Origin: Leptogorgia sarmentosa
Lineage: Eukaryota
Direction of reading: 5' to 3'
Assembly: GCA_964658305.1 (NCBI GenBank)
Contig: OZ210885.1
Location: forward strand, 14,012,001-14,076,000
Length of the DNA: 64,000 bases
The stretch's first letter is position 1. Every line of letters begins with the position of its first letter. Made by a program: the position numbers and the translations under genes. The notes under the pieces were generated by a model. It ran no database searches and was not told the DNA's origin. It worked only from the letters and a program-made list of their open reading frames with translations. Of this stretch, positions 7,251-58,262 are shown piece by piece.

Positions 7251-7414
7251 ATACTTACCTGACGCGAGAGGCACCTTGATCAACTAGGAGGTCCTCTCAG
7301 GATGAGGCCCTTTCATTGCACTTCGACTGGGTTGACTCCTGCGATTACCCCTAATGTGGGTAACTCGAGCGTATAATTTCTGGTAGTGGGGACCTGCGTT
7401 CGCGCTCGTCCCCT
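7251..7414 (+). ncRNA. U1: U1 spliceosomal snRNA, intact, 164 nt
   Basis: 5' ATACTTACCTG; SL1 loop GATCA; SL2 ATTGCAC; Sm site AATTTCTGG; terminal hairpin with TTCG loop. Confidence 0.97.
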
Positions 7415-8113: not shown

Positions 8114-8140
8114 ATCGCTTCTCGGCCTTTTGGCTAAGAT
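8114..8140 (+). ncRNA. U2: U2 snRNA 5' part (nt 1-27), interrupted by Tx1 element A
   Basis: ATCGCTTCTCGGCCTTTTGGCTAAGAT is the universal U2 5' end. Confidence 0.95.
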
Positions 8141-13934: not shown

Positions 13935-14926
13935 TAGTCTTAAGATGTAATGTAGTAACGGCGGGGGGTCGCCTTTGCTGGTAGCACTGCCCACAGTTGT
14001 GTCCCAGGAAGATCTGGTGGTCGCCTTAGCTGGTTGTACTGCCTGTGTTGGATTGGGTTGTATGTTTTGTCTCCCATGAAGATCTGGTGGTCGCCTTTAC
14101 TGGTTGTACTGCCTGTATTGGATTGGGCTGTCTGTACGTTCAATTTTTGTCCTGTGGTTTGCTCGGATTTCATTCGGGTAGGCTGCACAGGTTTTCAATG
14201 TTTTAGATCTTGGGGTCGCTGCTCATGTTGCATCCGTCTAGCTCAACATCACACTCCGACCATTTCACCATCATAGGTTAGGGATCCCTGGACGTGAAGG
14301 TGGGTAGCACCGGATCGTCCAGACCATTAACGGTTGTTTCATGGCACGGGGGAGGGGTTCATGACCTCAGTCGATCCGCGTCACCTGTAGTGACCCCCCT
14401 GAATGCGGCGATTGCACCGGGTTCAGGCTCCATTGCACCGTCGGAGTCGAGTAGCCCGTCGTCGTACAATTCAAAATAAGAACTCTAACTGTTGGTCCGA
14501 ATCCTCTTAGAAGTTCTCGTGGTGAAAGAAGATTTGTGCTCGAGGTTCGTGTTTCGTGGATCGTGGTGGTTTGGTGCTGTCCATCCATTTCCAGTCCTGT
14601 GAAGTCCTGTTCAGTGTTGTCAAAGTCTGTTCCTGTTTCCTGTGGCTGTTTTGCTGTTCGTTCGTGAAGCCTGGTCCTTGGTCTTGCGTTTCGTGTTTGT
14701 GCCCGTTTGCGGGGCCCTCTAGGGGGTAACGCTAAGGCGGTGGTCTTTTTTCCTTCTTTTTGTTGCGTCTGTGGTCAGGTTCGCCTGATCTCCTTGTTCG
14801 TTCTAATCTTTTCCAGGAGCAAGTGGCTTGTTCCTTGTGTGTGAAAAAAAAAAAATTTTTTTTTTGATAGGACTCAGTTGAAACAATTATGCCAGATTTA
14901 GGTCTTACTGTTAATTGTAGTCAAAT

Positions 14927-19991: not shown

Positions 19992-21915
19992 TGTTGGTTG
20001 GTTGTTCTTTGGTGATGTTCGTTAGTGTTGTCCATGTTGATTGTTAGCCTGACGATGCGATGGTCGCCTTAGCTGGTTGTACTGTCGTTGTCTGACGGGG
20101 TCCTTTTTTGTCCTTGCATCTTTAATTTTTGCCCTGTGGTTCACTTGGGTTGCACAGGTTTTCCAATGTTTTCGATCTGGTTGAATCAGTGGGGTTGCTG
20201 CTCATGTTGTCGCCATCTAGTTAACATCATCCTCTAACTGTGTCATCATCATAGGTTAGGGATCCCTGGGCGTGATGGTGGTTAGCATCAGATCGTTCAG
20301 GCCATTCATGGTTGCATCATGTCATCATCGCGTCACCTGTAGTGACCCCCCTGAATGCGGCGATTGTGACGTTCGTTGATATTATGTTATACTTAAATGA
20401 AGTAGATCGCCTAGCGGTAGATTACTTCCGGCTCAAAGACGTAGCGAACACGTTGTTTTTCAAAAGGATAGAAACAGTCGAATTATTATTATAGTAAAAG
20501 TACTTTATATATCGTCAAAATCAGAAGTAAGTTTAGTAATATGTATTTGTAGTTTGTATCAGTAGTATGTATATTAGTTATAGCCTTTATTTACACGTTT
20601 TCCTTGTATTATTCTTAGTTTTTACCGCTTTGTTTACGTGCAATTTTGCTAAAATAAATTGGAGTGTGTTTGCACAACGCAGTGGTTAAATTCAAGTGAA
20701 CTTGACGCAGCAGCAACCTCTCGTGGTGTGTCGAGAACGCAACAGTAAAAATTCTGATTTCGCAGAATAAAGAAATCAAAGGTAAGCGAAAGTTTCGTAT
20801 TACACGAGTATGAGTATCAAAGGCGACAAGGACTCGTTTGAACCAAGTCAAACTATGGAGAATCAAAAGAGGATAATTACTCGGTCGAGTAAAGTCTTTC
20901 AAAACACTGTCAATGACAAAGTTGAGTTAGCTATATGCACCCGGAGCAATTTGATTACACTTATGAAGAAAGTCGAGGAATGTAACAACAACACTACTGA
21001 GAAACATATGGAGGAACTCATAAAAGTTACTAAGGAGTATGAACTCATAACTAATGAGCTTAAATGCCTGCTAGACCAGGACAAATATGGAGATTTCAGG
21101 GAGGAAGCTGATTGGCAAAAAAAGGAACAGACTATTAGCAAAGCACATAGCTTGATTAAGAATACCAAGACTGTGCAATCTGATAGACGCTCGCAGGCCC
21201 CCTCCTGGCGTTCAAGATCACACTCGCACCGCAGTCGTCGACCCTCTTCTTCAACGAGTAGCTATACTAGATTAAACGCTCTAGCAGAAGCCGCCGCAGC
21301 CAGAGAAAGCGCGGAGTACGAACGGGTGATGGCAGCAAAGGAGCATGATTGCCGTCAGCGAGAATTAGATCACGCAAAAGAAATGGCAGTATTGATCGCA
21401 GATAAGAAGGTAGCCATTGCCAATGCAAAACTGAAAGCCATCGAGGAGGCTTTGCAAGATCAGGAGCTAGGAGAGAGAGCCAGTCTTCCCGAAGTCCCAG
21501 AGGTAAGAGCCGAAAAAAGAACAGATGATTGGGTAAACTCGGTTGCTTCACAAGAAATTGTTGGTGAAAACCCCCACGTTTCCCCCCTTCCTACCACAAA
21601 TCTTGGGAATCCTATTTCAAACACAACTCCTGTAAAAAAGCTTCATGTTATTGTTATATTAGAATGGTGGGTTTAGGGCCACTCCCGTAGACAGCCTGTG
21701 CACGGGCGAAGAGTATAGGGGGTGTGGTTTTAGAAGGGAGAAAAAACAGTGAAGTAGTCAAGTTGAGTTGCTAAATAAAAATACAAAATTCGTGAGTCGT
21801 GAGGTTTTTTAAAGGAGACGTAACACCTCCGCGTGCGACGTTTTCGACACAGTGGCGACCCCGGCAGGATATCGAAGCACTGCAAAACAGTAAATGGCGA
21901 AGTCTGGCGAGTCTA

Positions 21916-22685
21916 CAGGGTGTATCAAAAAAAAGTTTACTCGCGAAAAATGTCTTTTAGGCCGAAGCGCACGCACCCCATTGCAAACCATTGGTATATC
22001 TAAGTAGTTTGAGCCCTTCGGATACATCCTACACTAAAAGTTTGCAGAAAACGACCATTTTACGACTACGAAAAGTGTTATAAAAAGCCGTAGTAAAAAT
22101 GGCTTGCGCGAAAAAATGTGAGGCGGAAAATGCAATTTGATTTGACAGCCTAAATCTATCGAACAAGTTTCATAAGTTATTCAAGTTTTGAGAAATTTGG
22201 TGCACGCTGAGACGAACGTGCGATGTCCAAAAACTGGATTTTGCGTTTTTTCCTGCGTGATTACCGATTAATTTATCCATAATTGGATATTTGCATTAAT
22301 TACCAATGCAAATTGCAAGCTAATTCCCAAGGTACGTAATTACGCGAAGAAATTGCGGAAAATCCAGTTTTCGGGCATCGCACGTTCGTCTCAGCGTGCA
22401 CCAAATTTCTCAAAACTTGAATAACTTATGAAACTTGTTCGATAGATTTAGGCTGTCAAATCAAATTGCATTTTCCGGCTCACATTTTTTTGCGCAAGCC
22501 ATTTTTACTACGGCTTTTTATAACACTTTTCGTAGTCATAAAATGGTCGTTTTCTGCAAACTTTTAGTGTAGGATGTATCCGAAGGGCTCAAACTACTTA
22601 GATATACCAATGGTTTGCAATGGGGTGCGTGCGCTTCGGCCTAAAAGACATTTTTCGCAAGTAAACTTTTTTTTGATACACCCTG
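21916..22685. mobile_element. Fold-back MITE of Tc1/mariner type with ~330-bp inverted arms
   Basis: TA|CAGGGTGTATCAAAA ... TTTTGATACACCCTG|TA; arms ~21916-22247 and ~22356-22685 are near-perfect reverse complements. Confidence 0.92.
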
Positions 22686-23053
22686 TATACAGGACCATAC
22701 CTTCAAGATCAAGTGAACATTGTGCATTTCTACGACGAAATTCTCGTGATTTGTGAGCCGTGGTAGGAAAATTAGTTAACGGTGTCTTACTTTGCTTTAT
22801 TATCGTGCGTTATTGGGGACTATTATTTTATTTCTTGTTCTTTTCCGTAAAATTATACGACAATTTGCGCTATATTTGGTGGTTAGTCATCATTTGGAAT
22901 CGTGACCACGTGAGTGATGTGAGATAAGGCCTGGAACGAGGCATACCGAGTACGTCATGTAAGAACATCTTTCGAACCTGTGATTCGCAATACATATTCG
23001 AGAGATTTTCGCCAGATCGGCGGACCCTGTTAAGTCATTTATTCACTAGACTA

Positions 23054-26000
23054 ATGGAAAAGGCAATGGAGGAACTTAGTCACAAAATAAAGACATTGAG
23101 GTTCAGAATGGGAAAAACAAATGATGTAATTGGCAAACATGATAAGGAGGCCCTCGAGAGGCAACGTTTATCCGTCACGACTATCTCAACCATGGTGAAC
23201 ACTTTAAAAGAGAATATTGAGGAAGGAATGTTTACAAAAGGTGATACAGAAGAACAAGTCCAAGAGTGGGCTGCTGAAACGGAAACCCTGCTGGCGCAAG
23301 CGGACCATTGTGTGAGGGAAATCACAAGAGAGCTCAGGGACCTGCAGATAGCGGCGGAGGAAGCTACCACAGTACAAGAGCAGCGAAAGAAACTGGAGTT
23401 TGAAAAGCTTTTGACCGAGCAAAAACTGAGACAAGAACAGCAAGCTGCACAAGTCGAATCCTTACAGACATTGGACAGTTTGGGTAAACTTGATGCAGCT
23501 GTTAGGTTTACACTCGACAAGTTGGAAGTGATTAAGTGTTGAAATGTGGACAAAAAACAACCCAGTCAGAGATCACCAAGGTGGAAGGTTCTGGAAAGAC
23601 AAAGGCAGATCGTTCTTTGCAAACCAGGATAGCAAACACAACAGTGGGTTCAAGGGCTGTCTGTATTGTTCCAGTGAGACGCACCGAGCGATCAACTGCG
23701 ACAAGGTTGTGAAACCTGAAGACAGGAAGAAACTCTTGGCGGAGAAGCACTTGTGTTTTAACTGCACTGGTGCGAAACACAGAGCTGCTGACTGCAAGAG
23801 CAAGGGAAAATGTCAAATCTGCCAAGGGAAACACCATACCTCCATATGTGACAAGAATGCCAAGCCTCGGGAGCCGGGTATGACAGCAAATCATGTTGGT
23901 CAAAGCGCTGTTATACACCCTGTGGTAGTTGTTCGAATAAATGGATACAGATTCCGTGCATTACTGGACAGCGGTGCCAGTCATTCATATGCCTCTTCTA
24001 CTGCCATCAATCTCAGTGGAGCTAGAGCTAGAGTAAAGTCGGTTGGTCTTCGACAGATTGCGATGTTAACGGGAGTGACTACAAGAACAATGCAAGTATA
24101 TGAGGTGAAAATGCAATCGTTGTCGGGTGAATTTGATTTGGACGTGAACGTTACTAAGATAGAGAAGAGAGAGTTGTTGTCATTGGAAAATCCCTGTTAC
24201 AAGGATGTTGTGGAGAAGCATGCTCACTTGAGAGGAGTTCGTATGGACGACGATTATGACGAGAAAGAACAGTTGCCAATCCACCTCATACTCGGAGCCA
24301 ATGACTATGCTAAGATACGTACTAGTGAGAATTTGCGGTTTTTTGAACCGGTGGCGGAACATACCAAGTTTGGTTGGTCCATTATGTCCCCTGGAACGTT
24401 CTCGGCTTAGCAGATACAACCGGGCAGCAAAGCAACGTTCTGGGTGAATTTAAGGAGCAGCTTACAAGGTCAGACGAAGGTTGGTACGAAACGGCTCTTC
24501 CATGGAGGCCCAGTCACCAACCTCTATTGAGCAATCGTGATGGTAGCCTCGGACGGTTGAACTCGCTCCTACGGAAGCTGAAGAGAACAAACATGCTGAA
24601 CGAGTACGATGCAATAATTCGCGACCAGATCAAGCAGGGAATCGTAGAAAGGGCTCCGGAAGAAGTTGTTGGGAAAGAGTTCTACCTCCCACATCGTGCC
24701 GTGGTGAGAGAGAATGCAGAAACGACGAAAACACGAATTGTCTACGATGTGTCGGCGCGCGAAAGGGAAAATACTCCGTCACTCAACGATTGTCTGCAGA
24801 CAGGACCACCGTTGCAAAACCTGCTGTGGAGTGTCATTATTCGAAATCGTTTTCATCCAGTGGCGTTAGCGGGGGATCTGCAGAAAGCGTTTTTGCAAGT
24901 TCGAGTGCGGGAGGCTGAACGAGACGTGTTGCGATTTCATTGGATCAAGGATCTGCAATCATCTGAAGTTGAGGTGCTTAGGTTCACAAGAGTAGTGTTT
25001 GGTCTTGCACCGTCACCCTTCCTCTTAAATGGAGTAATTCAACACCACCTAGAAAACCTTGAAACTCAGTATCCCACAAGTGTACCCGAAGTACGTAAGA
25101 GTCTGTACGTGGATGATCTTATATCTGGAGCTCCCACTACCGAGGAAGCCAAGAAGCTAAAACGCGATGCCATTGAGATCTTTGATGATGCACGATTTCG
25201 ATTGCATAAATGGAACTCGAATATTTCGGAACTTGAGTCGGACGCGTCTGAGAGTGAACTTACATTCGCCAAGGAACAATTCGGTGGAAACCCAACAAGT
25301 AAAGATTGTAAGCTACTAGGTCTCGGATGGGACAAACTCACCGATGCTCTGCGAGTAACCTTTCCAACCATACAAGCTGTGCTGACGAAGCGCGGAATTC
25401 TCGCATACTTGGCGAAAGTGTACGATCCCCTCGGAGTTGTATCGCCAGTGTTGTTGGATGGAAAACTGCTTTATCGTGAGATTTGTGAGTTAAAGATTCG
25501 TTGGGATGCGCCATTACCTGAGTCGGTAGCTAAACGTTGGGAAAAGGAGCTAAGGTGGAGCTACATTCGTTCGGAGATGCAAGCGGTCGAGGCGTGTGCG
25601 CAGCTGTTTATGCGGTGGTCAGGCAAGATTCGGGGGTCACGCAAGGGTTAATTACAGCGAAGTCTCGGTTGGCGAAAACTAACCTAACCATTCCAAGATT
25701 GGAGCTTATAGCGGGCCACATGGCCGTGAATTTAGCTGTGAACGTCAGAGATGCTTTACAAGGGTTCAAGGTCGCAGAAAATATCCATTGCTGGTTGGAC
25801 AGCACCGTGGCCTTACATTGGTTGAACGACAATGGGGAGTACCGCCAATTCGTCGCGAACCGAGTAAACAAGTGGCCACCTGGGATCGTGACCAAAGCTA
25901 ATGACGTTAGTGACGCAGAGCGGAAGGTTCAACGAGAACTGTCCATGGTGGGAGTCGAGGGCAGTGAACACCTTGACGCCCTCCTGGTCAATTTCGGCTT

Positions 26001-27494
26001 GCGTAAAGCCTTGAGGAGTTCTGGATGGGTTCCTAACCTCATCCACAATTCTCGAAATCCTTCCAAGAAGATCGATGGAGCGATGACAACTGATGAAGTG
26101 CTGAAACAGGAGCTATGTTGGATAAAAGGGACGCATAACAAGCGGTAAACACGGAGAAGTTTCGGGAAGATAAAGAGCAGTTAAATTTAAAATTGAACGC
26201 AGAAGGAATATGGGAATGTCGTGGCAGAATCCAAGGGCAGTATCCGATCTATTTACCTGATTGTGCCTTATTTACGACCAAAGTGGTACAAAGAGCCCAC
26301 GTTTGTATGTTACACGGTGGCGTGGATCTGGTTATGGCTAAAGTTCGTGAAAGATACTGGATACCCCGTCTTCATAAGTTGCGAAGATGGTCATCACCGA
26401 CTGTTGGGGATGCAAGAAATTTAGGACAGCTCCAGCAAAATCTTCACCTCCTGGTCTGTTACCGAGAACGCGAACCGAGAAATCTACCCCGTTCGACATC
26501 ATTGGCGTGGACTTCGCCGGACCAGTGAAGTATCGCAGCAAAGGGAAAGAAAGGAAGTCGTACATAGTTCTATACTCGTGCAGTTTAACTCAGGCGGTGT
26601 TGTTAGACTTGCTACCTAGCCTCGAAACGAAGGAATTCATCAAGAGCTTGAAACGGACGATCGCAAGAAGGGGAAGACCGTCGTTGATCTATTCAGACAA
26701 CGGGTCCACATTCGTCGCGGCGGCGAAGTGGTTGAAATCCGTACGCAAAGACGAAGAGCTAAACAATCTTCTCCGAAATCATTCGATATCATGGCGGTTC
26801 AATCTTAGCAGGGCCCCCTGGTGGGGGGGCCAATTTGAACGTCTGATCGGGATAATGAAAGCGGCATTTTACAAAACGGTCGGAAGTGGAGTGCTTACGT
26901 GGGACGAACTTGGCGAGGTGCTCCTGGACATAGAAATTGCAATCAATAATCGACCCCACCCTTACTCCAAATTTTATGTTGTTTCTGAATCCTAACTACC
27001 TACCAGAATTAAAGCCATATCATCACGAAGAAACAACCTTAAGAAAACGTGCAAAATTCTTAAGGAAAGCCAAGGACGAAATGTGGAGGCGATGGAGTAA
27101 TGAGTGTCTGAGGTCCCTCCGCGAACGCCATCGGTTGAAACACAAATCACAAGGCCACGTCATTGCAGTAGGTGATGTCGTATTGGTAAAGTCGACGGAA
27201 CGAAATCGAAACAACTGGCCGTTGGGAATAGTAGAAGCGCTGATTGTCGGCAAAGACGGTGCAGTTCGTGCAGTTCGACTGAGAAGCGGTCGTGATCGAT
27301 TAGAATGCGCGGTACAACATTTATATCCTCTCGAACTAAGTTGTGACCTCTACAAGGAAAAGGACGGGGAGAACAAGAAGAAATCTGTGGAGCTGAATCC
27401 AGAAGCACCCAAGTTCAAGCCGAAGCGACAGGCGGCGGTTGAAGCCAGTGAACGGATTAGCGAACAGTTAAACGATGAAGAACAGCGAGAATGA
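23054..27494 (+). pseudogene. Inner BEL gag-pol (CCHC knuckles, protease, RT, RNase H, integrase), frameshifted
   Basis: CFNCTGAKHRAADC, ALLDSGAS, YLPHRAV, LYVDD, LHSFGDAS, IPRLEL, GVDFAGP, SDNGSTF, APWWGGQFER. Confidence 0.93.
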
Positions 27495-29913
27495 CTGGTT
27501 AACTTTAAGTATATTCGCACGATACATTGAGCTTTATCAAAGAACAATTTCGTAACTGTTAGCGTATCCAAGAACATATGAATCGAATACGATTCATATG
27601 TCCTTGAAATCGATAAAAAAGCTTCATGTTATTGTTATATTAGAATGGTGGGTTTAGGGCCACTCCCGTAGACAGCCTGTGTGCGGGCGAAGAGTATAGG
27701 GGGTGTGGTTTTAGAAGGGAGAAAAAAACAGTGAAGTAGTCAAGTTGAGTTGCTAAATAAAAATACAAAATTCGTGAGTCGTGAGGTTTTTTAAAGGAGA
27801 CGTAACACCTCTGTGTGCGACGTTTTCGACACTCCCTTTGAAAATCCCCACGTATCCCTAGGTCCCACTACAAACCTCAACGGCCCACCCCCATCAACAA
27901 GTTTTAGCTACAACCCCCATGTTTTCGATGGTCCATCTACAAATAGAGTTCCAGTGATAAGTGTAGGCAACAGCCCACTTCACATGACCAACCAAGTTCC
28001 TATCTCCCAAGCCTACCACAAAACTGCATCAGTAAACCTTAACAGTACAGTCCCACTATGGAGTGTGAACGGTCGCCCACATCAAATACCTAATGCGCAA
28101 CCCCCCACCCAATTCAGCCAAGTTGGAGATGCGACCGGAAGTCAACTTATAGAGTCGCTGACATCAGCCAATCAACAAGTGGTCGCTGGCTTAGCAAGGC
28201 AAAACCTGCCGAAGTGTCATCCAGACATTTTTGGTGGTGATGCAACACTCTTTCATCCCTGGAAAAGAGCCTTCAAGGCTATGATCAAAGACACGTCTGT
28301 AACCTCTGAACAAGAGATTAATTATCTACGCAGTTTCACCCGTGGAGAAGTCCAGCGTGTTGTAGACAATTTCCGGAAACGCCATCAGAATGATCCCACA
28401 GCCCTTCTTCAGAACCTCTGGAAAGAACTAGAGACACGCTTCGGAAGTGCAGCTGTCATAACAAATGCCTTGTTGGAACGCCTACACAGCTTGTCGAACT
28501 TCCAAGAGAAAGACAACACCAAACTCCAAGAGTTCGCTGACCTATGTGTGGATGTGAACAGCCAGATCGAGAATCTACCTGGATTGGCTTGTCTACACTA
28601 CCCTGGAGCGATTCGCCCGATTGTCGCAAAATTACCAGCATCGATAAAAACGAAGTGGGAGAAGGAAGTCGTGAAACATGCTGAAACCCACAACAATGCA
28701 TACCCAGGCTTTAGCGTTTTTACTCAAGTGGTAAAGACTCAAGCAAAGATCAAGAACCATCCGAACATCCTTGCAGGCAATCTCCAGAAACTCGCTCTTG
28801 AAAGATATAGAGAAAAACCCAGAGATCAAAGGGCTCTGCGAACGAGCTTAGATGGCGAAAGCAAGAACCCATCACAATCCATCAAGAAGTGGTGTCCCTA
28901 CCACAAGTGTGATCGCCATGGACTAACTGAGTGCAAAGCATTCGAAACAAAAGCATTACGAAAACGAAAGAACAGAGTGGATACAGAAAGCAGGACTGTG
29001 TTTTCGATGCCTCAAAGAAGGACATCAAGCGAAGAAGTGCAAAGCCAAGATCAGCTGCTCCATTTGCGGACACGATCGTCACCTCGCATTGCTACACAAA
29101 GAAAAGGTGGAGAAAGAAAGTAAAGATGAGAATAAAGTAAACCCCGCTGATGGCGAGGAGAGTGCTTCCGAGCAGGTGACAAATAAATGTACAGCAGTAT
29201 GTGGCGAAAGTAACGGTGGCATTTCTTGTAGTAAATTCTTGCTTGTTGACATTGTCAAACCAGACGCAACGAATGAATCCTGCCGTGTATATGCAATCAT
29301 CGATGACCAGAGCAACAGTTCCCTCATCAGCAGCGAGCTAGCAGACATGCTTGGAGCAGAGGGTCCAAAGGAAAAATATTACTTATCGACATGCAGTGGT
29401 AGCAAGGAAACTAAGTTTGGTCGAAGAGTCTCCGGATTGGTCATAAGATCTGTTTCAAATGGTAGAGAAGTCCACCTGCCAACGCTTGAGAGCCAAGAAA
29501 TTGCTCGAGAGATTCCACCACTAGATGAAAGAGCAGGCGTGCATGTCCTTCTTGGCCGTGATGCACTTGAGCTACTGAAAGTCCGAGCATTCAAGAACGG
29601 AAAAAAGGGTGCCCCTTGGGCACAAAAGCTGTTGTTGGGATGGACTATTACTGGACAAATATGCTTAAATTTCTTGAACAGACCTGTCCACGTCGAAGCC
29701 CGAAAGACAAGCGTCATTCCAGATGGCACTGACGAAGCAGAAGTTTCTATCTCAGGAGGAGTAGATGGCTTGAAATATTATGTAGTTCCATGCCCGAATA
29801 CATTGGAGATTACAGATGGCATCATAGGGAGTAACATATTTCGCTCAAGCCCGCTTGATAATGAAGTCAGTCTTTCCATTGAAGATCGGAAATTCCTTGA
29901 GATAATGGAGAAT

Positions 29914-30043
29914 CTGTCGGGGTATACGAGATTTACCCCTCTCAGCCTGGAGCCAGAATTCGTATCCCCCTCAGCGCTTCGCGCTTCGGGGGATACGAGT
30001 TCTGGCTCCAGGCTTCGAGGGGTAAATCTCGTATACCACTCAG
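29914..30043. repeat. Long palindrome with ~55-bp arms around GCGCTTCGCGC; probable fragment of a non-autonomous fold-back element
   Basis: GGTATACGAGATTTACCCCT..AGCCTGGAGCCAGAA..CGTATCCCCC is mirrored by GGGGGATACG..TTCTGGCTCCAGGCT..AGGGGTAAATCTCGTATACC. Confidence 0.85.
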
Positions 30044-30644
30044 ACCTTCGGAATAAGTGTTAGTAACTCTGCTCGCAAGGTTTACTACTAGCTGCAGTTC
30101 TTTTTTGCAGACACGCCTTCTTCTTTGTTCTGTCTTCCCGCTGTCTGGCCGGCCTACTAGGTGTCAAGGTAGCAGTTTGTCCATTCTTTTTTCTTTTGGA
30201 CTGCTTTTCTTGTTCTTCGGAACTCGATTGGTAGTCTTTCCTGCTGTTTGTTGCGCGGTTAGCACGCGACACAGCATAGGGCCGCCCATTACAGTGTTTT
30301 TTTATTGTTTTTATTAGGTAGTGGGTAATAGCTCTTCTTGTGTGTGACCTGTCGAGGAGTCTGTTTGGGGACTACTCAAAGGTCGGTGGTCTTTTAGGTT
30401 CTTTTTTTTTTGCATTCGGTGTTGCGGATTGAGGTCGGTGGACCAACATATTCGTTCCCTGGCTCTTCTTCTTTAAAAAGGACCTTTCTTTCCACTTAGT
30501 TTTTTGATCCTTAGTGTGTGTGTGGGTCTTAATTTGTAGTACTTTTTAAGGCTCAATTTTCTTTGCCACTCGGGTCTTACCTGTTTTGGCAGTGTTTATT
30601 AGGATCAATTTGGTTTAGTTAAATAATTAATAGTAATTTTTGGT

Positions 30645-32435
30645 ATGTCTGCCCCAGCTGTGTTTAGTCAAGAGGACTTTGCGAAGTGGAACCAGACCAC
30701 GTCTGTGTTTCTCTTGCCAAAGAAACTGGTTGGCAAAACCAAAGTCCCTCAGCTACGGGCAGAATTAGTTAAGGCCATTGGGGAGAAGAGTGTGTCTTGT
30801 GTTCAGGCCTTGCCTGGCATGAAATTTCGTGTGTGTTTTTCTTCTCCCTCCGTTCGAAGTCAGTTTGACATCAACGGTCTTAACTTTCGGGGCCTTACCA
30901 TCACGCCCTTCCCGGCCTACGAGGAGGTCAAATCCGTTTTTGTGGATCGTGCACCTCCCCAGATGCCGGATCAATACATCTACGACGCCCTGGCACCATA
31001 CGGTCGTGTGATCGCGGTGAAGCACTTAACTATTAAGGGCTTCCCGTCTGTTAAATCTGGCACACGTATGGTGCAAATCGTCATATCGAAGGCCATCCCA
31101 GCTGAAATTCGCGTGGTTGGATTTCAGCTGTCGTTCCGTGACCGCGGGCAGCCTCCAACTTGCTTTGCGTGCCAAGAGGTGGGGCACACTGCAAAGGACT
31201 GCCCAAAGTCATCAAAACGCCATGGCCGTAATCAACATCGAAATAGTGCTGGTAAACCACAGCCTACAGAGGCGGAGGACCGTAACAACCTGCCGGCTAC
31301 GTCCGGCCTTTCTAAATCGTCCTCTGGCTCTCGCACTGGAGACCTTCGCGAGAAATTAACTCCGAAGGCCACCAACTCGGCAGTGCCCAAGGCTACCAGC
31401 AAGTCTAAGCCTACAGAGGGTTCGGCCAAAGACAAAAACAAACCCTCCTCTTCTTCTTCTTCTCGCAAGGGTGACCTGCGTGAGAGGTTAACGAAGAAGA
31501 CTAGCAAGCCGGAACTGCCATTTGTTCCGGCTGTAGCGGCTAAGGCCAAGGCTCCTCAGGCTAAGGGGGTTAATCCCCTATTAGTTTCGGCTAAGGAGAG
31601 CACCTTCTTGCCGGCCTCGTCCGGCCCTTCTAAATCGACCTCTTCTTCTCGCCCTAGAGGCCTTCGGGAGAAGCTGAGGAAGAAGGTTCCCAAGGCCACC
31701 GAGCCGTCGGATGACACCACAGTGACGCCTCCGACAGCGGAGCATTTGAAGCGCAAATCCTTTGATTTTGCGCTTCCAATACCCTATGCAAGCCCACGTC
31801 CCCTTGGCAAGTCATCATCCAAGGCACCTAAGGGTGTTAGGGCCAACTCCACCAGGGATGCTCCTTTTTCCTCTTCCTCCTCGAGTAGTGAGGATGAAGA
31901 GGGTATAGTGTCCAAGAGGGTATGCCAGTCCGCTCCTGCTCCTTTGACTCCGACCAATGTTAGCGTGTGGCCAGGGTTCACGAGCCCTTCTAGTCCAACT
32001 GCCACTCCAGAGGCCATGGAGGCAGAGGCTGACGTGGACAAATGTTTGAGTGGTGATACGGTCGTTGATCCGATCATCGCTCAAGAATCTGCGCCTGCTC
32101 TTGACTCTACTGAGCCAGTCGGATCCCCGGAGCATATGGATGATGCTCCCGTGCCTCTTCAGGCTGATGTGGAAGATGACGCTAATGCTGCTTCGCAGGA
32201 TCCTCCTGCAGTGGATATCTTGTCTCAGCAGTCTGAGTCATCCCTCGATCTCTTCGAGGCACTGGCAGCCATCCATGAAGACTCGCTGTCTCGTCTTCGC
32301 GATGATGTCAGTGAGGTTGGTGCATCTTCGACATGCACGTCGTTTAGTGATCAGCTTCGTGCTGATCAACTCGAGGAGCTGCCCACATCTGGGACATCAG
32401 ATTCTGATGGCGAGTCTGTTGTCCATCAATATTAA
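30645..32435 (+). CDS. Element D ORF1, open, 596 aa
   Basis: ALAPYGRV, SGTRMV, GQPPTCFACQEVGHTAKDCP; repeated S-rich/GDLRE(K/R)L motif; overlaps ORF2 ATG at 32407. Confidence 0.88.
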   Translation: MSAPAVFSQEDFAKWNQTTSVFLLPKKLVGKTKVPQLRAELVKAIGEKSVSCVQALPGMKFRVCFSSPSVRSQFDINGLNFRGLTITPFPAYEEVKSVFVDRAPPQMPDQYIYDALAPYGRVIAVKHLTIKGFPSVKSGTRMVQIVISKAIPAEIRVVGFQLSFRDRGQPPTCFACQEVGHTAKDCPKSSKRHGRNQHRNSAGKPQPTEAEDRNNLPATSGLSKSSSGSRTGDLREKLTPKATNSAVPKATSKSKPTEGSAKDKNKPSSSSSSRKGDLRERLTKKTSKPELPFVPAVAAKAKAPQAKGVNPLLVSAKESTFLPASSGPSKSTSSSRPRGLREKLRKKVPKATEPSDDTTVTPPTAEHLKRKSFDFALPIPYASPRPLGKSSSKAPKGVRANSTRDAPFSSSSSSSEDEEGIVSKRVCQSAPAPLTPTNVSVWPGFTSPSSPTATPEAMEAEADVDKCLSGDTVVDPIIAQESAPALDSTEPVGSPEHMDDAPVPLQADVEDDANAASQDPPAVDILSQQSESSLDLFEALAAIHEDSLSRLRDDVSEVGASSTCTSFSDQLRADQLEELPTSGTSDSDGESVVHQY

Positions 32436-33201
32436 TGGTCTCAATGACTGTATTAAACGAACCGCCCTGGTGGATTGGTTGAAATGTATGAAGGTGGATG
32501 TTGCATGTTTGCAAGAAATATGTTTGGTGGAAAACATATCTAGTAGAAACGTGTACCACATTAGTCAAAATAATTTAAACAGCCAGCCACATTGTATTGC
32601 CAAATTTACGCCGCAGTATGGACCTCTACACTGGCCCCAAACTTGGAGTCAGCTCCATCTATGTCCATTTGACCGGCTCGTGATCGACCTGAATTGGCAA
32701 ATAGCGCATGGCATTCTATACACGGGCTCTCGCTAGGGAACCCGCTTTAACATGCCCAACATCGATACGCGCTGTTTCTGTCGAGCAGATGAAGAAACGT
32801 TAGAGCATCTGTTCTTCGAATGTGAGCTGGCCCGCCTTTTGGTGGCATGGGTACACTACAATTTATGGCAGATATGTCCTAATGCCGCACCTTTTACCGT
32901 CACGGAACTCTTGTTCGGCTTCTCGTCCGAACGACGGCGCATCGTGCCCTCAATCATCGTGTGGATGCTCCACGTGATGAAACACACCATCTGGGTGGCT
33001 CGTTGCGATTTCCGTTTCCGTGGTAAGCGACCAATCGCCTCGGATTGCCAGGCGAAAGCCATCGCCAAAATAAAGTTTGTCCTTCGTCTCTTTGGTCGTA
33101 GGTGCAAACTCCCTGCTCAAGTGCGATCCTTTGAGTGGGATTGGCTCGCTCGTGGTATTTTAGGACATTTCGAGGGGGAGGAGCTGGTCTTCTCCTTTTA
33201 G
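32407..33201 (+). pseudogene. Element D ORF2 remnant: EN start fused to the C-terminal zinc-finger region
   Basis: MASLLSININGLND..ACLQE jumps near 32518 to ..WQIAHGILYTG..CFCRADEETLEHLFFEC. Confidence 0.85.
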
Positions 33202-33547
33202 TCTTTTTAATCTTTCTTTCTTCCTCTGCCGTTCCGTGAAGGGGGGTCGCCTTCGTTGGTTGTACTGCCCCGATCGGTTCGGTAGGGTCGTTTTCTCTTT
33301 TTAAATGCCCGTTGCTGCCTGTATCAGGTGAGCATCGGTCCATGTACCGTCCTAGTATGTGTTGTTTTTTATATAGAGTTAAATGCACTAATCGAGGCGT
33401 CAGAAAAATAAATATTCTCGGGGTGCATTTAATGAGGAGGTAGGGATCGTCCCCCTAGTCGTTTGCGTGCCGGTAGCACCCTCCTCGATTTAGGGAAATC
33501 CATTGCACGCCCCCCAGTGGGGGTGGATTTGCCTATATCCAACATAA

Positions 33548-33709
33548 ACTTACCTGACGCGAGAGGCACCTTGATCAACTAGGAGGTCCTCTCAGGATGA
33601 GGCCCTTTCATTGCACTTCGACTGGGTTGACTCCTGCGATTACCCCTAATGTGGGTAACTCGAGCGTATAATTTCTGGTAGTGGGGACCTGCGTTCGCGC
33701 TCGTCCCCT
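33548..33709 (+). ncRNA. U1: U1 snRNA nt 3-164, promoterless, 3' flank of element D
   Basis: Matches 7253-7414. Confidence 0.95.
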
Positions 33710-34391
33710 TTATCCTCATCTTATCATTCTCATTTCAATACTCAAACCTGCCAATATAAGTGTCGTCGAGCATGCTAGTATATTGACGAGACAACAATTC
33801 CATGTATTCTTCACACTGCAGGCCGGCCGCCTGTTTCATGAACACGTGTAACTCGATACTAAATCGTGGTCATTCGAAACTAATACACAACCATGCAATC
33901 AATATTGGAATTGGATTACTCACACCTTCTTGTATGCATGTCACATGGAATGAATGAATGAGTCAATCGATACACACGCTGCCAACCGATCATGCATTCT
34001 ATACTAGACTTATGTTAAACAACATTTCCAATTCAAATGCACTCGTCATTTCTCCAACCGAAGCGCAACCGGACACGCTTCGTTCAACTCAATGCATGTC
34101 GCTCATTTGCCATTCGCGAATCGGTCGCGGAGCCAGCGAATGCGAAAAAGCGCCACGTGCGCCTGCCAAAAAATCGCCAGAAATTCGTGGAGTTTCGCGC
34201 GTGCAGCCGAGTTAATTAGCAGCGCACAAACGATTGATTGTACGCATCATCATCACCGCGTGCGACAACGTTTGCGGCTTGTTTCGCTTGAGATTTCGCG
34301 GCCGCGGCTGCTGATGGCGGCGCGAAGGAGGACCGCATTTTTTCACCTTGCTTTTCTCGCTTAAAAGATGGCGTGGAACGGCGAATAAGGC

Positions 34392-34415
34392 ATCGCTTCT
34401 CGGCCTTTTGGCTAA
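34392..34415 (+). ncRNA. U2: U2 snRNA 5' part (nt 1-24), interrupted by element C
   Basis: ATCGCTTCTCGGCCTTTTGGCTAA after the same spacer as 7415-8113. Confidence 0.93.
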
Positions 34416-37400: not shown

Positions 37401-40276
37401 AAGAATGGAGAAAGGAGAAGATGTCCATGAATACTTAGGTGAAGCAAAAGCTGATTTGGATCTACTCATGCAGGAAGCAGCGAGAGGAGCCTAAGTTCGT
37501 GCACGGGTACAATGGGCAGAAGAAGGGGAACGGTCCACTTCATACTTTTTTCAACTGGAAAAACGTCGAGCGACCAAGTCAGTGATCCGATCCATCTCTA
37601 GGCCGGACAGTTTGTTGGCAATGACATCGCATGGCATACTTGAAGTGTTTCGCGAATTCTACTCTGATTTATTTACCTCACAACCCTTAGCGGAGTACGA
37701 CATTGACTTTTTCATATCCCATATTGAGCACACTTTGTCGTCGCACGACCAGAAACTTTGTGAAGGACATCTAACGGTGGAAGAGTGCTTTGAAGCGGTA
37801 AAGAATATGTCACAGAACAAAACCCCTGGGTTGGATGGCCTTCCAGCTGAGTTCTACATCGTCGGTTGTCTCCCTGTCTCAGACTGCCGGTACACCTGGT
37901 CGATTATCGGATGCAAATATCCGTTTAATTAAAGACATTGTTCAGTATGCGAATGAGAAAGATTTTTCGGCGGCTATTATATCCTTAGACCAAGAAAAAG
38001 CCTTTGACTGAGTGGAATGGCCGTTCATGTCACACGTTTTATCTGCCATGGGGTTTGGTCCATCATTTCAACGGTGGGTGAGCCTCCTCTACACCAATAT
38101 CTCCTCAGCGGTTATTGTCAACGGCTTTATATCCAAACCATTTGCTGTTTCCAGGGGTGTCCGTCAAGGTTGCCCACTTTCCCCGTTACTTTATATCCTA
38201 GTGATCGAGGCTTTGGCTATTACCATCGAGAAGGACACGAGCATTGATGGTTTTACTCTTCCTGATGGCTCTCGACAAAAGTTATGCCAATATGCTGATG
38301 ATACTACGGCGTTGGTCATGTCAGATCAATCTATCCTGCAGCTCTTTGCAACATGTAAGCAGTACGAATCAGCATCGGGAGCCAAGCTCAATCCAAGTAA
38401 ATGTGAGGGCCTTCTGCTTGGTGCCTGGCGTGCTCGGTCAACCTTCCCTGTGGAACTCAATTGGAAAGCAGATTGTATTCGTGTCCTCGGGAGTCGTATC
38501 AGCAATGACGGTTCAGAGGATTGGCAATTCCCCCTCGACAAATACACCAAATTGTTGGAATCCTGGAAGCGTCGTGACCTTTCCTTTCGTGGGTGTACTA
38601 TGGTAACAAAGACTCTTGGGTTGAGTCTTTTCTGGTATCTCGCCACCTTCCAAGAGATACCGTCGAAGATACTGGCAACGATCAACTCGTTGACATTTTC
38701 ATATATTTGGGGCAAGAAACGAGAATGGTTAGCCCGAAATTCGGTGACCCAACCTGTGGGATCTGGTGGTCTTGGTGCTGTTGATGTTGGACGTAAGATA
38801 CAATCTCTACATTGCCTATGGATCAAACGGTACCTACTTGGTCCTTGTCATGGTTTTTTTTAATATTTCGCAATGTGTGCTTTCCCCAACAAAGCATCAA
38901 TGACTGACATCCTATTACACCCACGCCCCGCTACTCGTTCTTTACACGCTCTACCGGCATTCTACAAATCCATCCTCTGTTCCTGGGTAGCACTGAATCC
39001 TAGCCTTTCGGAACAGATCTGGAAAGTACGCGCACCGAAACCACCGGACATAACCATTGACCACCTAAGCGCCAAGCTAGCCTATGATCTTCTTCGAAAG
39101 CCTTTCTCCCATCGCTGCTTCGAACATTCACATACCTTAGGGCCAGCTAAAGAGTGGAAGTGGGTGTGGCATAATTTATCACTGTGGAACTACGTGCGAT
39201 CTGTACAGGACACTGCGTGGCTTTCTGCCCATGGAATTCTTCCTACAGCTGATCGTCTACAGCGATTTGGACAACAAGTGTCGGGGGAGTGTCACTGTGG
39301 CTGCCCAGAGACTCTCGTCCATCTATTTACGGAGTGTCAAGTTGACATCGACGTGCTCCACTGGTTCTTAGCACGTTTCCAACAGTACCTTCCGCACAGC
39401 AAATATCCTACCGACCAAGAACTCCTTTTCGGTTTTCATCCAGCTCGCAAAATTCCTGTCGCATACTCAGCGATGTTAGGTGTTATCCGCCACCATTTAT
39501 GGCTGACCCGGAATGCTTCCCGTTTCGACTCCACCAAACCGGATGTGGACTTTATCCTATCCCGTGTCAAGTCAACTTTCCGATTCCTACTACGTGTCCA
39601 ACATCGTAATTGTAAACCAGAGCTGTTTGATCGTGAATGGCTGGCAAAGGGGGCCATCGGGGTCTTAACTCCCGACAACGTTCTCATTCTGCGACAGGAC
39701 TTTCGCACTTGACCATATTGTGTGTTGTATTTTGTGTTACTGTCACCATACGGGGGTCGCCTTGATTGGTTGTACTGCTGTCCTTGGGGCAGTCTAACTT
39801 GTGTGTACACTGTTTCCTTACTGTCGAGGCAATGTTTGTATAACTCGTGAAATAGTAATATCGTATGTCCTGTAATATGTTTAATTGTCTTGCCGAGATA
39901 TGCGGCGTGTATAGTGGTCTCGTAATGTTTCGCAATTTTGGCCCGTGGTTCTTTCAAGTCTAACTCCCAAGGATTGCACAGGTATCTGGTGGACTCAGGG
40001 GTGCTCATGTCATCATCGACTTCAGTTTCAGATCATCTACTTCATTCAATCACCATCATAGAGTTAGGGAACCCCAGGCGTGACAGCGCTTAGCACTTGA
40101 TCGTCTGGACCACTCACGAGTCGTTTCATGGCACGGGGGAGAGGGTCGTACTCTCTGTTGATCTGCTTGCTGTGTAGCAACCCCCTGGGTGCGGCGTTCG
40201 CACAAAAGTTCAGGTTGCATTGCACCGACGGAACCGGATCAGAAACGATGCAAACTTTACGTCGTTCAATTCAAAA
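34416..40276 (+). mobile_element. Tx1-clade element C (third family) inserted in U2; ORF1 ~34741-36380 and ORF2 36400-39712 both disrupted
   Basis: Flanked by U2 nt 1-24 and U2 nt 22 onward; YRGQPRSCFACGEGGHVSKDCP; LQETH, GDFN, SDH, QGCPLSP, YADD; ends CAATTCAAAA. Confidence 0.93.
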
Positions 40277-40605
40277 TAAGATCAAGTGTAGTATCTGTTC
40301 TTATCAGCTTAATATCTGACATCTACTTCATTCAATCACCATCATAGAGTTAGGGAACCCCAGGCGTGACAGCGCTTAGCACTTGATCGTCAGGGCCACT
40401 CACGAGTCGTTCCATGGCACGGGGGAGAGGGTCGTACTCTCTGTTGATCTGCTTGCTGTGTAGCAACCCCCTGGGTGCGGCGTTCACACAAAAGTTCAGG
40501 TTCCATTGCACCGACGGAACCGGATCAGAAACGATCCAAACTTTACGTCGTTCAATTCAAAATAAGATCAAGTGTAGTATCTGTTCTTATCAGCTTAATA
40601 TCTGA
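40034..40605 (+). repeat. Two imperfect 286-bp direct repeats (element C 3' end plus U2 nt 22-64)
   Basis: 40034-40319 and 40320-40605, differing at about 6-7 positions in the element part. Confidence 0.92.
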
Positions 40606-40729
40606 TATGTTAGGCAATGTCCTAACTCATATATTAAACTGATTTTTGGACCTCGGCCATGGGATTGAAGCTTGCTTCGCCCTGGCCACGGGTTGTCTCG
40701 GTATTGCACTACCTCCGAGTACGGCCCAC
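40563..40729 (+). ncRNA. U2: U2 snRNA 3' part (nt 22 to ~188)
   Basis: TAAGATCAAGTGTAGTATCTGTTCTTATCAG, Sm site GATTTTTGG, SLIV CTCGG-TATTGCACTACCT-CCGAG. Confidence 0.96.
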
Positions 40730-41183
40730 TTCCCCCAATTTCATTATTGGGGGAAGATTTCTCACTCACTATCAGTTCAAAATCAGTCTAACAAATTATT
40801 CTTGACTTTACAGATAGATCCTTGCCGCGAACCGGCATTTGGCAAGAGATACGTATACAATGACATATTCAGTGCGGATGACCGACGACGAAGGAATTAT
40901 GGTAAGCAGCCTAACACATTCATGTTATAATAGTCTTGGGTAGCTGCTCGTTGGCCAACAAAGCTTAAGCAGCATCGCTGTTCATGAGATTTACATTCTT
41001 TGGTTTTTTTGTAAACTCGTATTGAATATGCGGGTCGAGAATTGTCGGAACGTGCAAACATGGTGCAGTCCGAGAGATCGATCGATCCATCTATCGACAG
41101 ACAAACTCATCCCCATGCATTCGTTCCACAAGCATTCCTCGAGGTTGAAGCGTATAAAAGGTAATCGTATGCGCCATGAAGTC
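40730..41183 (+). promoter_or_regulatory. U2-U1 intergenic spacer including the U1 promoter
   Basis: Distal part matches 7050-7250 and ~53336-53609. Confidence 0.75.
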
Positions 41184-41200
41184 ATACTTACCTGACGCGA
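41184..41200 (+). ncRNA. U1: U1 snRNA nt 1-17, interrupted by element E
   Basis: ATACTTACCTGACGCGA directly after the U1 promoter. Confidence 0.92.
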
Positions 41201-44200
41201 CCGTCTTTGTCGTGTCAGGTTCTTCATACTTGCAGTAGAGGATCTATGCTCAGGAACACGGACCCGTAACTCTGCTCGCAAGGTTTACAACTAGCTGCAG
41301 TTCTTTTTGCAGACATGCCTTCTTCTTTGTTCTGTCTTCCCGCTGTCTGGCCGGCCTACTAGGTGTCAAGGTAGCAGTTAGTCCATTCTTTTTTCTTTTG
41401 GACAGCTTTTCTTGTTCTTCGGAACTCGATTGGTAGTCTTTCCTGCTGTTTGTTGCGCGGTTAGTACGCGACACAGCATAGGGCCGCCCATTAGTGTTTT
41501 TTATTGTTTTTATTAGGTAGTGGGTAATAGCTCTTGTGTGTGACCTGTCGAGCAGTCTGTTTGGGGACAACTCAAAGGTCGGTGGTCTTTTTAGGTTCTT
41601 TTTTGCATTCGGTGTTGCGGATTGAGGTCGGTGGACCAACATATCCGTTCCCCGGCTCTTTTTCTTTTTGAAGGACCTTTCCACTTAGTTTTTTTTGGTG
41701 GATTGTGCGCCTCCCCAGATGCCGGATCAATACCTCTACGACGCCTTGGCACCATACGGCCGTGTTATTTCGGTGAAGCATTTAACCATCAAGGGCTTCC
41801 CGACCGTTAAATCTGGCACACGTATGGTGCAAATAGTCATTTCAAAGGCTATTCCAGCTGAAATTTGCATAGTTGTTACCGCGGGCAGCCTCCTAATTGC
41901 TTTGCGTGCCAAGAGGTGGGGCACACTGTAAAGGAGTGCCCAAAGTCATCGAAACAGAGGAATCAGGGCCGTCAAACTAGAAATAAAAATAGTATTGGTA
42001 AATCTACGCCTACAGAGGCTGAGGATAGTAATAACTCGCCGGGTTTGTCCGGCCTTTCTAAATCGTCCTCTGCCTCTCGCACTGGAGACCTTCGCGAGAA
42101 GATAACGCCAAAGGCTAGTAAGTCGGCAGTGCCCCAACCTACCAGTACAACTAAGCCGGCAAAAGGTTCGCTCAAGGACAAGTCATCCTCTTCTTCTTCT
42201 TCTTCTTGCACGGGTGACCTTCGGGAGAAGTTAACGAAGAAGAAGACTAGCGAGCCAGCACTGCCATATGTTCCGGCTGTAGCGGCTAAGGAGAATGCTC
42301 CTCAGGCTAAGGGGGTTAATCCCCTATTAGTTTCGGCTAAGGAGAGCACCTTCCTGCCGGCTTCGTCTGGCCCTGCTACATCGAGCTCTTCTTCTCGCCC
42401 TAGAGACCTTAGGGAGAAGCTGAGGAAGAAGGCTCCTAAGCCCACAGGTCACTCTGAGCAGACTACTTTGACGCCTCCGACAGCTGAACATCTGAAGAGC
42501 AAATCCTTTGATTTTGCGCTGTTGCTTTCTCAGTGTCGCCTTGGCAAGTCACCCAGGCATGATCCTTTTTCTTCTTCCTCCTCCAGAAGTGAGGATGAAG
42601 CTGGTAAAGTTGGCAAGAGAGTATGCACGTCTGCTCCTGCGCCTCCGAGTCCATCCAACGTTAGCGTGTGGCCAGGGTTCCCGAGCCCTCCGACTAAAAC
42701 TGCCACTCCTGAGGCCATGGAGGCGGAGGCTGACGTGGACAAGTGCTTGAGTGGTGATACGGTAGTGGACCCTATCGTCGCTCACGAATCTGCACCTGCT
42801 CTTGCCTCTACTTAGCCAGCCGGATCCCCGGAGCGTATGGATGATGCTCCTGTGCCTCCTCAGGCGGATGTGGACGATGATCATGCTGCTTCGCAGGATC
42901 CTCCTGCAGTGGATGTCTCGCCCCAACAGTCTGAGTCATCCCTCGATCTTTTCCAGGCACTGGCAGCCATCCATGAAGACTCACTGACTCGTCTTCGTGA
43001 CGATGTCAGTGAGGTTGGTGCATCTTCAACATGCACGACTTTTAGTGATCAGCTTCATGCTGATCAACTCGAGGAGGTCCTTCTTGGTGAGCCGCCCACT
43101 TCTGGGACATCAGATTCCGATGGCGAGTCTGATGTCCATTAACATCAACGGTCTTAACGACTGTGTTAAACGAACCGCCCTGGTGGATTGTTTAAAGTGT
43201 ATGAAGGTGGATGTAGCATGTTTGCAAGAAACGCATGCTCCTTCGCACGAATCCATTAGGAAGTGGTTCGCTAACTCTGGCTTTCGAGTTGTCTCGTCGT
43301 CAGTGTCAAATAAGCGTTGTGGGACGGCTATTCCTATTAAAGATTGCCACAAGGTCAAACAGGTGATCCGAGACGATGATGGACGGTTTGTCCAAGTCTT
43401 GGTTGATTTTGGGGAAGATCAGCTAAGTTTCGTCTCATTATATGCCCCAAATAAGAATCCGGCTTGTAACGCTTTTTTCGCTTCAATTCCTGGTTTAATT
43501 GATCTTACCAGGCCCACATTTGTTTGTGGTGATTTTAATTCTGTTCTAGATGATGATCGGCATAGGCTTCGGCGTGCTTCTTACACTGGTGCTGCCTCTT
43601 CGCGCGCCCAGGAAAGTGGCCCGGCTTTGCAGGCCCTACTATCTCATACCCAGACATATCCGGTGTGGCGTACATTACATCACACGCAGACAGCTTATTC
43701 CTGGACCCATGGGTCCGGAACCTTTGGCTCGCGCATCGATATGGTCTGGGCCCCGACTTGTCTGGAACAGTCTATTAGGGAATGTGAATATCATCCCTCC
43801 TTTTTATCCGATCATCAGTACTTGCTGGTCAAGTTCGATTTTGGTGATCGCATCGTTAGTGGTCCTGGAGTGTGGAAGTTTAATACTTCCCTCCTGGACG
43901 ACGAAACCTATTGCTCGCTTGTCACTTCTTTTTGGTCCTTCTGGCAGGTCCATTATACACCTGAGGCCTTTCCCTCCATTTTGGATTGGTGGGACCAAGG
44001 GAAGTTCTACCTTAGAGAAGTGACATGCACTTTTAGTCGGTCAAAGGAGCTGGACCGGCGTGAACATAAATCGTTCCTGACCAAGCAAATGCACAGATTG
44101 CAACGTCTTTTTGAAGCAGGGGATACCTCTGCATTCGCTAAGCTTTGCGAGGTACAGGAAGAGCTCCGAGGCATTGCTTTGCATAAAGCTAGAGGGGCAC

Positions 44201-44560
44201 AAGTTCGTGCTCGTTGTCAGTGGGCTGAGGAGGGGAAAACTTCCTCCTCCTTTTTTCTCAATTTAGCCACTAAGCGACATGCAAAGCAGGAGATGCACTC
44301 CATTCGAGACCCCGACACCGGTTCCGTGCGCCGCGACCCTTTTGAGATCTTGGACGTCTAGCAGCGGTATTACACCAGACTCTTTACTGCGGCACGCTGC
44401 GATACATCTGCTCAGGATGAGATGCTGTCAAAGCTGTCTCGCCGCCTTAGTAAGGAGGAACGTGCGTGTTGTGAGGGTCTTCTGTCTTTAGAGGAGTGTT
44501 TTACTGCCCTATCGGTTATGGCTAGGGGAAAGACTCCGGGTTTCGATGGCTTTCCCGGAT
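41201..44560 (+). mobile_element. U1-targeting Tx1 element E: 5' end intact, ORF1 partly deleted, EN and start of RT present
   Basis: 5' UTR and ORF1 homologous to D and G; ORF2 from 43120 with LQETH, GDFN, SDH, GPGVWKFN. Confidence 0.88.
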
Positions 44561-56559: not shown

Positions 56560-56868
56560 GAGATGCTAATCGATCTGTCTGAGTTTTGGTATGAGTAAGC
56601 TTGACTGGACCAGCATAGGTTAAAATTGGGAGTATCATCATGGTGTAGATCTTTGTTGCTGCATGACTATTCAGATAGTTTCTAACATTCTGTAGTAGTC
56701 TCATACGACTGCTTGCTCGTTTATAGGCTCGTTCAAAATTACTGTTCAGAGTGAGTGTACTCTCCAGGACATTTCCAAGGTACACATATTCTTTAACAAA
56801 AGAAATAAGTGTGCCGTTGTAATAGATTTTAAGTTCTCTTCCATTTTGACTCAATCTCAAAAAACAAT
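56560..56868 (-). pseudogene. CR1/L2-group RT C-terminal fragment
   Basis: EYVYLGNVL..KRASSRMRLL..IYTMMILPILTY. Confidence 0.7.
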
Positions 56869-58245: not shown

Positions 58246-58262
58246 ATACTTACCTGACGCGA
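58246..58262 (+). ncRNA. U1: U1 snRNA nt 1-17, interrupted by element G
   Basis: ATACTTACCTGACGCGA; same junction as 41184-41200. Confidence 0.92.

Follow-up and report, generated by a model that had tools for sequence, protein, structure and literature searches.

A LINE copy inserted in a U1 snRNA gene, element E, ends in a hairpin in which the heptamer AUUGCAC stands beside a C-G pair. The locus raises the question of how such a site came to lie at the end of a retrotransposon, and of which protein would read it. The original prediction held that the same heptamer on two unrelated scaffolds, at the same terminal position, pointed to selection for binding of an snRNP protein rather than to shared ancestry alone.

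A LINE copy in a U1 gene and its terminal hairpin

The DNA analysed (64,000 nt, hereafter the window) is animal DNA with a U1/U2 snRNA gene array crowded with nested LINE copies. Rfam matches were obtained for U1 at 7251-7414 and 33546-33709 and for U2 at 40551-40734. Element E (30063-33547) is a Tx1-clade LINE copy with a cut 5' end, most of ORF2 deleted and an intact 3' end; E and its parts, its target gene, the junctions of copies F and G and the termini of families A and C all lie on the forward strand. E is 84% identical to copy G and 81-93% to copy F, and its ORFs and Pfam matches also back the call. ORF1 (30645-32435) carries two predicted RRM-like domains and a CCHC zinc knuckle (Pfam zf-CCHC). 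The C-terminal remnant of ORF2 (zf-RVT region, 32737-33201) gave a weak zf-RVT match (E value 7e-4, under the curated cut-off) and is 35% identical to ORF2 of B. Exo_endo_phos and RVT_1 domains were found in sister copies (42988-44358 and 50259-51830), so that the Tx1-type domain set is made up of the zinc knuckle of E and the endonuclease and reverse transcriptase of its sisters. Placement of E in the Tx1 clade rests on this domain architecture and on general likeness to Tx1 elements, the trees being built from window and locus rows. One labelled ORF1 relative, from Paramuricea clavata (P0018; 68% identity), suggests that the host is an anthozoan.

The target is a U1 gene from nucleotide 3 on (33548-33709; Rfam RF00003, 151 bits), identical to the intact U1 gene at 7251-7414 over 162/162 positions. 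At the 3' junction (33547/33548) the last bases of the element abut U1 nucleotide 3 exactly and without a tail. The 5' junctions of copies F (41184-41200) and G (58246-58262) show U1 from nucleotide 1 to 16-17 followed by element, at the same U1 site. Because both copies begin after U1 nucleotide 16-17, a target duplication of about 14-15 bp is implied, and the three junctions together show recurrent insertion at one site. Exact junctions with U1 nucleotide 3 were also found in other loci (L014, L019, L024, L025, L027, L046, L051 and L052), site specificity being looser in some relatives.

Several other features were noted in the window. A near-perfect, MITE-like palindrome of about 100 bp (29930-30031) lies just 5' of the cut end of E, and disrupted frames at 20786-30063 resemble, by eye, pieces of a BEL/Pao-type LTR retrotransposon. 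Another LINE, CR1/L2-like by eye, has endonuclease- and RT-like frames at 47749-49949, and an ORF remnant at 56850-58049 resembles, again by eye, the C-terminal part of a LINE with a restriction-like endonuclease (R2/NeSL/Utopia type). A tandem array with units of roughly 60 bp occupies 1671-2161.

The terminal hairpin of E (33491-33535) was obtained by folding and is kept with compensatory change in other organisms. Minimum free energy and centroid structures agreed in placing AUUGCAC (33502-33508) as a 7-nt bulge 3' of the pair C33501-G33525, the fold that had been described from the letters; the 12 nt said to separate the hairpin from the 3' end were borne out by the junction. The closing C and the heptamer together (33501-33508) form a predicted U1A/SNF-type recognition sequence, and an apical hairpin (33510-33523) takes the place of the 3-4 nt loop spacer of the relatives. 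The energy was -22 kcal/mol (z -2.6, 2/200 shuffles as good), and z fell to -3.7 for the hairpin with its flanks (33486-33547). The heptamer was predicted to be unpaired with a mean of 0.88. The closing pair reached a pair probability of 0.95 and G33509-U33524 just 0.54; because the latter pair is also lost in relatives, a clean bulge and an 8x1 internal loop are equally likely. In prediction E thus has the single-stranded AUUGCAC 3' of a C-G pair that is typical of stem-loop II, with covariation in the relatives. The features of U2 stem-loop IV (a U preceding the heptamer and a conserved UAC(C) following it; PMC4114683) were not found, C preceding the heptamer in 13/13 representative relatives and the spacer being variable. 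A microRNA-92 seed reading of the heptamer was rejected, as the target would need the complementary strand.

UTR modules and terminal sites of the relatives

Two modules in the 3' UTR were used to find relatives. M1 (33242-33271 in E) lies about 45 nt past the stop codon and is common to A, B, C, D and G; its pattern gave 8 matches in the window versus 0 in 100 shuffles, and 0 matches in viral contigs. It consists of a stem with a small conserved internal loop just past the ORF2 stop, is often tandemly repeated, is common even to the Keno-type family and is a candidate reverse-transcriptase signal. M2 is a conserved multi-branched RNA that includes a hairpin resembling the tRNA T-loop; it lies upstream of the heptamer hairpin and was seen at L024 (oriented 2337-2407), at 18 other loci and at L051; Rfam gave no match over M2 in the loci scanned. 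The window families were not detected by the M2 profile search. At the M2 position, E has a predicted three-way junction (33434-33484; fold, and local alignment to A and C), whose homology to M2 is suggested by position and shape, the profile giving no detection there.

Alignment to families A, B and C gave a graded picture. M1 aligned with each of the three (0/500 shuffles scoring as high in each case), and the pre-terminal 60 nt (33431-33490) with A (5/500) and C (0/500) and not with B (104/500). The terminal hairpin alone was matched or exceeded by 80, 232 and 106 of 500 shuffles versus A, B and C. The earlier statement that the rest of the terminal region cannot be aligned to A, B or C therefore holds for the hairpin itself and fails for M1 in all three families and for 33431-33490 in A and C.

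Scanning of metagenome contigs with the M1 pattern, which does not contain the heptamer, yielded 50 loci, and the likewise heptamer-free M2 profile selected 19/50 with at least 110 nt behind the module. Exact AUUGCAC in a C-G-closed terminal loop was present in 18/19 of these, and C plus heptamer within one mismatch in 19/19; the loop of these relatives is plain and of 10-11 nt. Four further loci had the terminal hairpin (L022, L028, L029 and L041; one shared locus without M2), three of them with a change of the last base; this AUUGCAG in L028, L029 and L041 belongs to one shared locus, is probably post-insertion decay and was not used as evidence. The remaining 27/50 loci were neither M2-selected nor had the terminal hairpin: nine are Keno-type and AT-rich, L020, L031 and L043 look bacterial, and the others are contig-end cuts, truncations, one deletion (L019) or unclear.

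The 23 termini formed 13 clusters at 85%, and 19/23 were taken into an alignment after L011, L027, L041 and L045 had been dropped as near-duplicates. The named stem was 89% paired on the 19 rows, with 21 double changes and 0/500 shuffles as good, a count that is not to be read as a probability since the aligned rows are kin; slid controls gave 25-56%. RNAalifold recovered the same stem. The closing C and all seven heptamer bases were invariant in 13/13 representatives, a count favoured by the choice of an intact member for two of the clusters, and the partner G was kept in 11/13, while spacer and stem columns varied. The distance to an AAUACA-like hexamer was 19-22 nt in 20/23 loci. An exact junction with U1 nucleotide 3 (9/9 bases) was seen in 5 of the 23 heptamer-hairpin loci, and many other heptamer-bearing copies lie outside U1, where a short A tail separates them from target sequence that is loosely like the U1 site or unrelated to it.

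The bulged form of E was also followed in other organisms. Contigs from four runs of four studies (X8, X9, X10 and X15) were mapped on 33425-33565 at 80% identity, which favours similar contigs, and neighbouring positions still varied. No change at 20% or more was found within 33497-33508 or 33525-33531. C33511-G33522 was replaced by U-A in all four runs, C stood in place of G33495 and pairs with G33531, and pairing between G33509 and U33524 was mostly lost by base changes. A minor variant with C33508 changed to T, plus other changes, was present in X1, X2 and X8 among the rows listed. The heptamer is absent from some copies. Copy G breaks off before the hairpin, as had been noted, and forms skipping the hairpin were seen in L019, in one X1 contig and in one X15 contig, the last with a depth of 258 versus about 190 for hairpin-bearing contigs (its short side is 20 nt, so the value is uncertain).

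Two loci fetched after the hypothesis had been set, L051 and L052, each hold two nested elements at U1 nucleotide 3. At the end of one element, C-AUUGCAC is followed by a small tetraloop hairpin and then by G, which is the topology of E in other letters; the second has the same form with an extra site in a 13-nt loop. The animal U1 genes and LINEs of L051/L052 come from a contig filed under a bacterial genome, and the bin is likely contaminated with host DNA. Another of the three genome-collection matches, L053, was an unrelated bacterial stretch and was discarded.

Heptamers also close the U2-inserted families. The terminus of family A (14400-14475) has two, one at 14411 in an asymmetric, G-C-closed loop and one at 14432 in an 11-nt, C-G-closed hairpin loop. 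That of family C (40471-40560) has a heptamer at 40505 in an 11-nt, C-G-closed loop and a degenerate 7x1 loop, and its second copy at 40219 shows a stem change. A tandem duplication of 286 bp (40034-40322 and 40320-40608, 97.6% identical) comprises the 3' end of C together with 40 nt of U2. A heptamer at 39973 was not counted as a site, being mostly paired in prediction and matching a paired motif in A and B.

As a folding criterion, the heptamer was required to be at least 0.6 unpaired and the closing C-G pair to reach at least 0.5. It was passed by 8/13 representatives, E, the hairpin site of A, C2, host U1 and 3/3 L051 sites, and failed by 5/13 representatives, the internal site of A, C1 and host U2. 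Chance sites, defined as 89 viral matches of the heptamer-plus-U1 pattern, none with a Tx1 ORF2 or U1 match, passed in 5/89 cases, and other heptamers of the loci in 0/17.

Origin of the terminal site

Trees of the ORF2 C-terminus were calculated with rows of fewer than 110 filled columns excluded and, in one tree, seven more dropped; long branches limit the trust to be placed in them. A long branch separated the Keno-type rows from all heptamer-bearing lineages. E and G grouped with the A-D lineage at 96/98 in one tree and formed no resolved group in another. In the AU test a clade of E, G and L051 was weakly rejected (p=0.033), and two origins of the bulged form are therefore possible; a group of E, G and the M2 loci was not rejected (p 0.20). 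The RT tree misplaces L042, probably because its upstream DNA holds another element.

These data bear on three ways in which the heptamer could have come about without common descent under selection. A chance heptamer inside a GC-rich hairpin would fit the expectation of about 4 heptamers per strand in 64 kb, but a heptamer is expected in a given 60 nt at about 0.3% (145/46,000 in the last 80 nt of shuffled UTRs), whereas 18/19 relatives have it in the same place; this reading, already refuted by the M2-selected relatives, the four runs and L051/L052, is negligible. A functionless relic of a captured snRNA, or a DNA-level motif like the sub-terminal ATTGCAC repeat of Dada-U1, is highly improbable. 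Host U1 and U2 both hold the heptamer, deleted copies exist, and Dada-U1 shares ATTGCAC with U1 at the DNA level, according to the passage cited (PMC3706591); however, the flanking stems bear no resemblance to those of host U1 and show covariation as paired RNA, no heptamer position varies although adjacent positions do, and the inverted partner seen in Dada is lacking. The original proposal, an independent rise of the heptamer on unrelated scaffolds in families targeting U1 and U2, is very unlikely and was given up. The terminal hairpins cannot be aligned, loop topology differs, and the AU test weakly rejects one clade of E, G and L051; against this, the UTRs are homologous, with M1 and the pre-terminal module in common, the heptamer lineages share one side of the long branch, and relatives with a plain loop are joined by the loop-plus-apical-hairpin intermediates of L051/L052.

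The site is best read as inherited under selection rather than as a product of convergence. The appeal to selection for snRNP-protein binding is upheld in so far as heptamer and closing C are invariant amid varying stems, and falls where it set selection against ancestry. The simplest reading is a single origin in a U1-targeting ancestor, with the site kept through deep protein divergence and its spacer repeatedly grown into a hairpin; it may be that the apical-hairpin elaboration alone arose twice.

Candidate recognition by U1A/SNF and known systems

According to the passages cited, U1A contacts AUUGCAC and the closing C-G pair, whether in stem-loop II or within an internal loop (PMC2203988, PMC5807370); it requires a stem, favours loops of at least 10 nt and makes no contact with the 3' spacer (PMC4114683). 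The invariant letters of the relatives are the positions reported there as U1A contacts (PMC2203988, PMC4114683), and host U1 keeps the same loop. On this agreement host binding is the best explanation, and the tail of E is probably an inherited, conserved copy of the U1 stem-loop II site that would bind host U1A/U2B''/SNF. Selection on a U1A/U2B''/SNF-type site is supported indirectly, by sequence comparison.

It is unlikely that the loop is read by the element's own protein (the RRMs of ORF1p or the reverse transcriptase), having perhaps been captured once from U1, with host U1A not the selective agent. LINE 3' stem-loops are often recognised by the element's own proteins, and the motif is located where reverse transcription starts. 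ORF1p is predicted to have two RRM-like domains, its model (pLDDT 84) giving tandem-RRM proteins such as hnRNP A/B and Hu as best fold matches; no solved structure was matched by the ORF1 sequence at an E value below 0.001. However, no U1A-family protein is among the top-50 fold matches listed, conservation follows the U1A contacts position by position, and the motif stays fixed though ORF2 C-termini fall to about 30-37% identity, where element-specific signals would be expected to drift.

The element inserts at U1 nucleotide 3, and its lineage retains C-AUUGCAC-G at the terminus of the RNA through turnover of the stems. In the family of E the spacer, which U1A does not contact, has expanded into a small hairpin, and the site thereby takes an internal-loop form resembling those in the U1A mRNA. 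With a host U1A/SNF protein as the preferred reader, the following course can be proposed. The host protein would bind the terminal loop on the element RNA and, more tentatively but as its most likely role, might damp the weak A-rich signal just downstream. Transcripts would then read through into U1 sequence, which could anneal to the nicked target and prime insertion at the exact site. Second in likelihood would be a role in bringing the particle to snRNA genes. Nuclear import or delivery to snRNA loci is an alternative role of this kind.

A 3'-end role with U1 read-through is favoured by the 19-22 nt hexamer spacing, the two-site variants and the exact, tail-less junction of E; the spacing may, however, just reflect stem length. 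A target sequence downstream improves accuracy in R1Bm and SART1 (PMC7265360, passage cited). Against this role, E has one site, whereas inhibition of poly(A) polymerase takes two U1A molecules in the parts cited of PMC6884704 and PMC3157836, and many heptamer-bearing copies have A tails. That a whole anthozoan LINE lineage on the first bases of U1 carried a stem-loop II mimic throughout, hijacking U1A/SNF for 3'-end control and homing and tuning it from one-loop to two-site, PIE-like forms, is possible and is put forward tentatively.

Like U1 stem-loop II, the E site has AUUGCAC 3' of a C-G closing pair, and its relatives have the canonical 10-11 nt loop; it differs in standing in a retrotransposon 3' UTR, with unrelated stems and a 14-nt hairpin as spacer. 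The PIE of U1A mRNA has the geometry of a 7x1 loop. E resembles it in bearing the heptamer in an asymmetric internal loop near the RNA 3' end. In the PIE, two sites act cooperatively upstream of a poly(A) signal (PMC6884704, passage cited), whereas E has one that is not followed by a canonical AAUAAA; two-site versions are found in family A and in the second L051/L052 element. Dada-U1 DNA transposons share the U1 gene target and the sub-terminal ATTGCAC, and differ in their DDE transposase, DNA-level inverted repeat and other U1 site, an RNA hairpin not being claimed for them in the cited part of PMC3706591. Crocodilian SINEU elements are Tx1-mobilised retroposons with U1/U2-derived sequence (PMC4494074, in part); they carry long snRNA pieces as the 5' head of non-coding elements, whereas the determinant described here, of 8 nt, lies at the 3' end of autonomous LINEs.

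Keno is a U2 snRNA-targeting LINE of the Tx1 clade, found from cnidarians to vertebrates (PMC4494074, PMC4640811), and shares with Utopia an insertion site at which U2 loses its first 38 bp (PMC4640811), as described in the passages cited. E and Keno are alike in a Tx1-type ORF1 with zinc knuckle, an endonuclease-RT ORF2 and insertion in a spliceosomal snRNA gene. They differ in target, E's family inserting at U1 nucleotide 3 with a 14-16 bp duplication and Keno 38 bp into U2, so that E does not belong to Keno. The Keno-type AT-rich family of nine loci has M1, and its two visible ends (L038 and L042) abut U2 at the Keno site without a terminal heptamer, indicating that the motif is dispensable for snRNA targeting. 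In families A and C the insertion point within U2 lies near nucleotides 22-27 (8113-8140, 14467-14481, 34391-34415, 40265-40290 and 40551-40580); this differs from the Keno/Utopia site and is possibly an unreported target.

In a literature search, with Repbase, supplements and subscription journals outside its scope, no U1-targeting LINE and no U1A site in a LINE tail was found to be reported, and the borrowing of U1A by a LINE tail seems undescribed for such elements. Host factors of site-specific LINEs are mostly unknown, and the E RNA names a candidate partner. Tails with a plain loop, with a loop and a hairpin, with two sites or with no site exist in nature and offer a ready-made series for testing the ending of snRNA-promoter transcripts and target finding. 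U1 genes might also be an added multicopy landing site for RNA-templated gene insertion.

Off-target 3' junctions of relatives (L003, L004, L007, L008 and L039) were observed at sequences resembling the U1 5' end. As the U1 5' end is the reverse complement of the 5' splice site, off-target copies may end up at splice donors that lie on the other strand. In L007 a heptamer-degenerate copy (3747-3864) ends where a U5 snRNA match starts.
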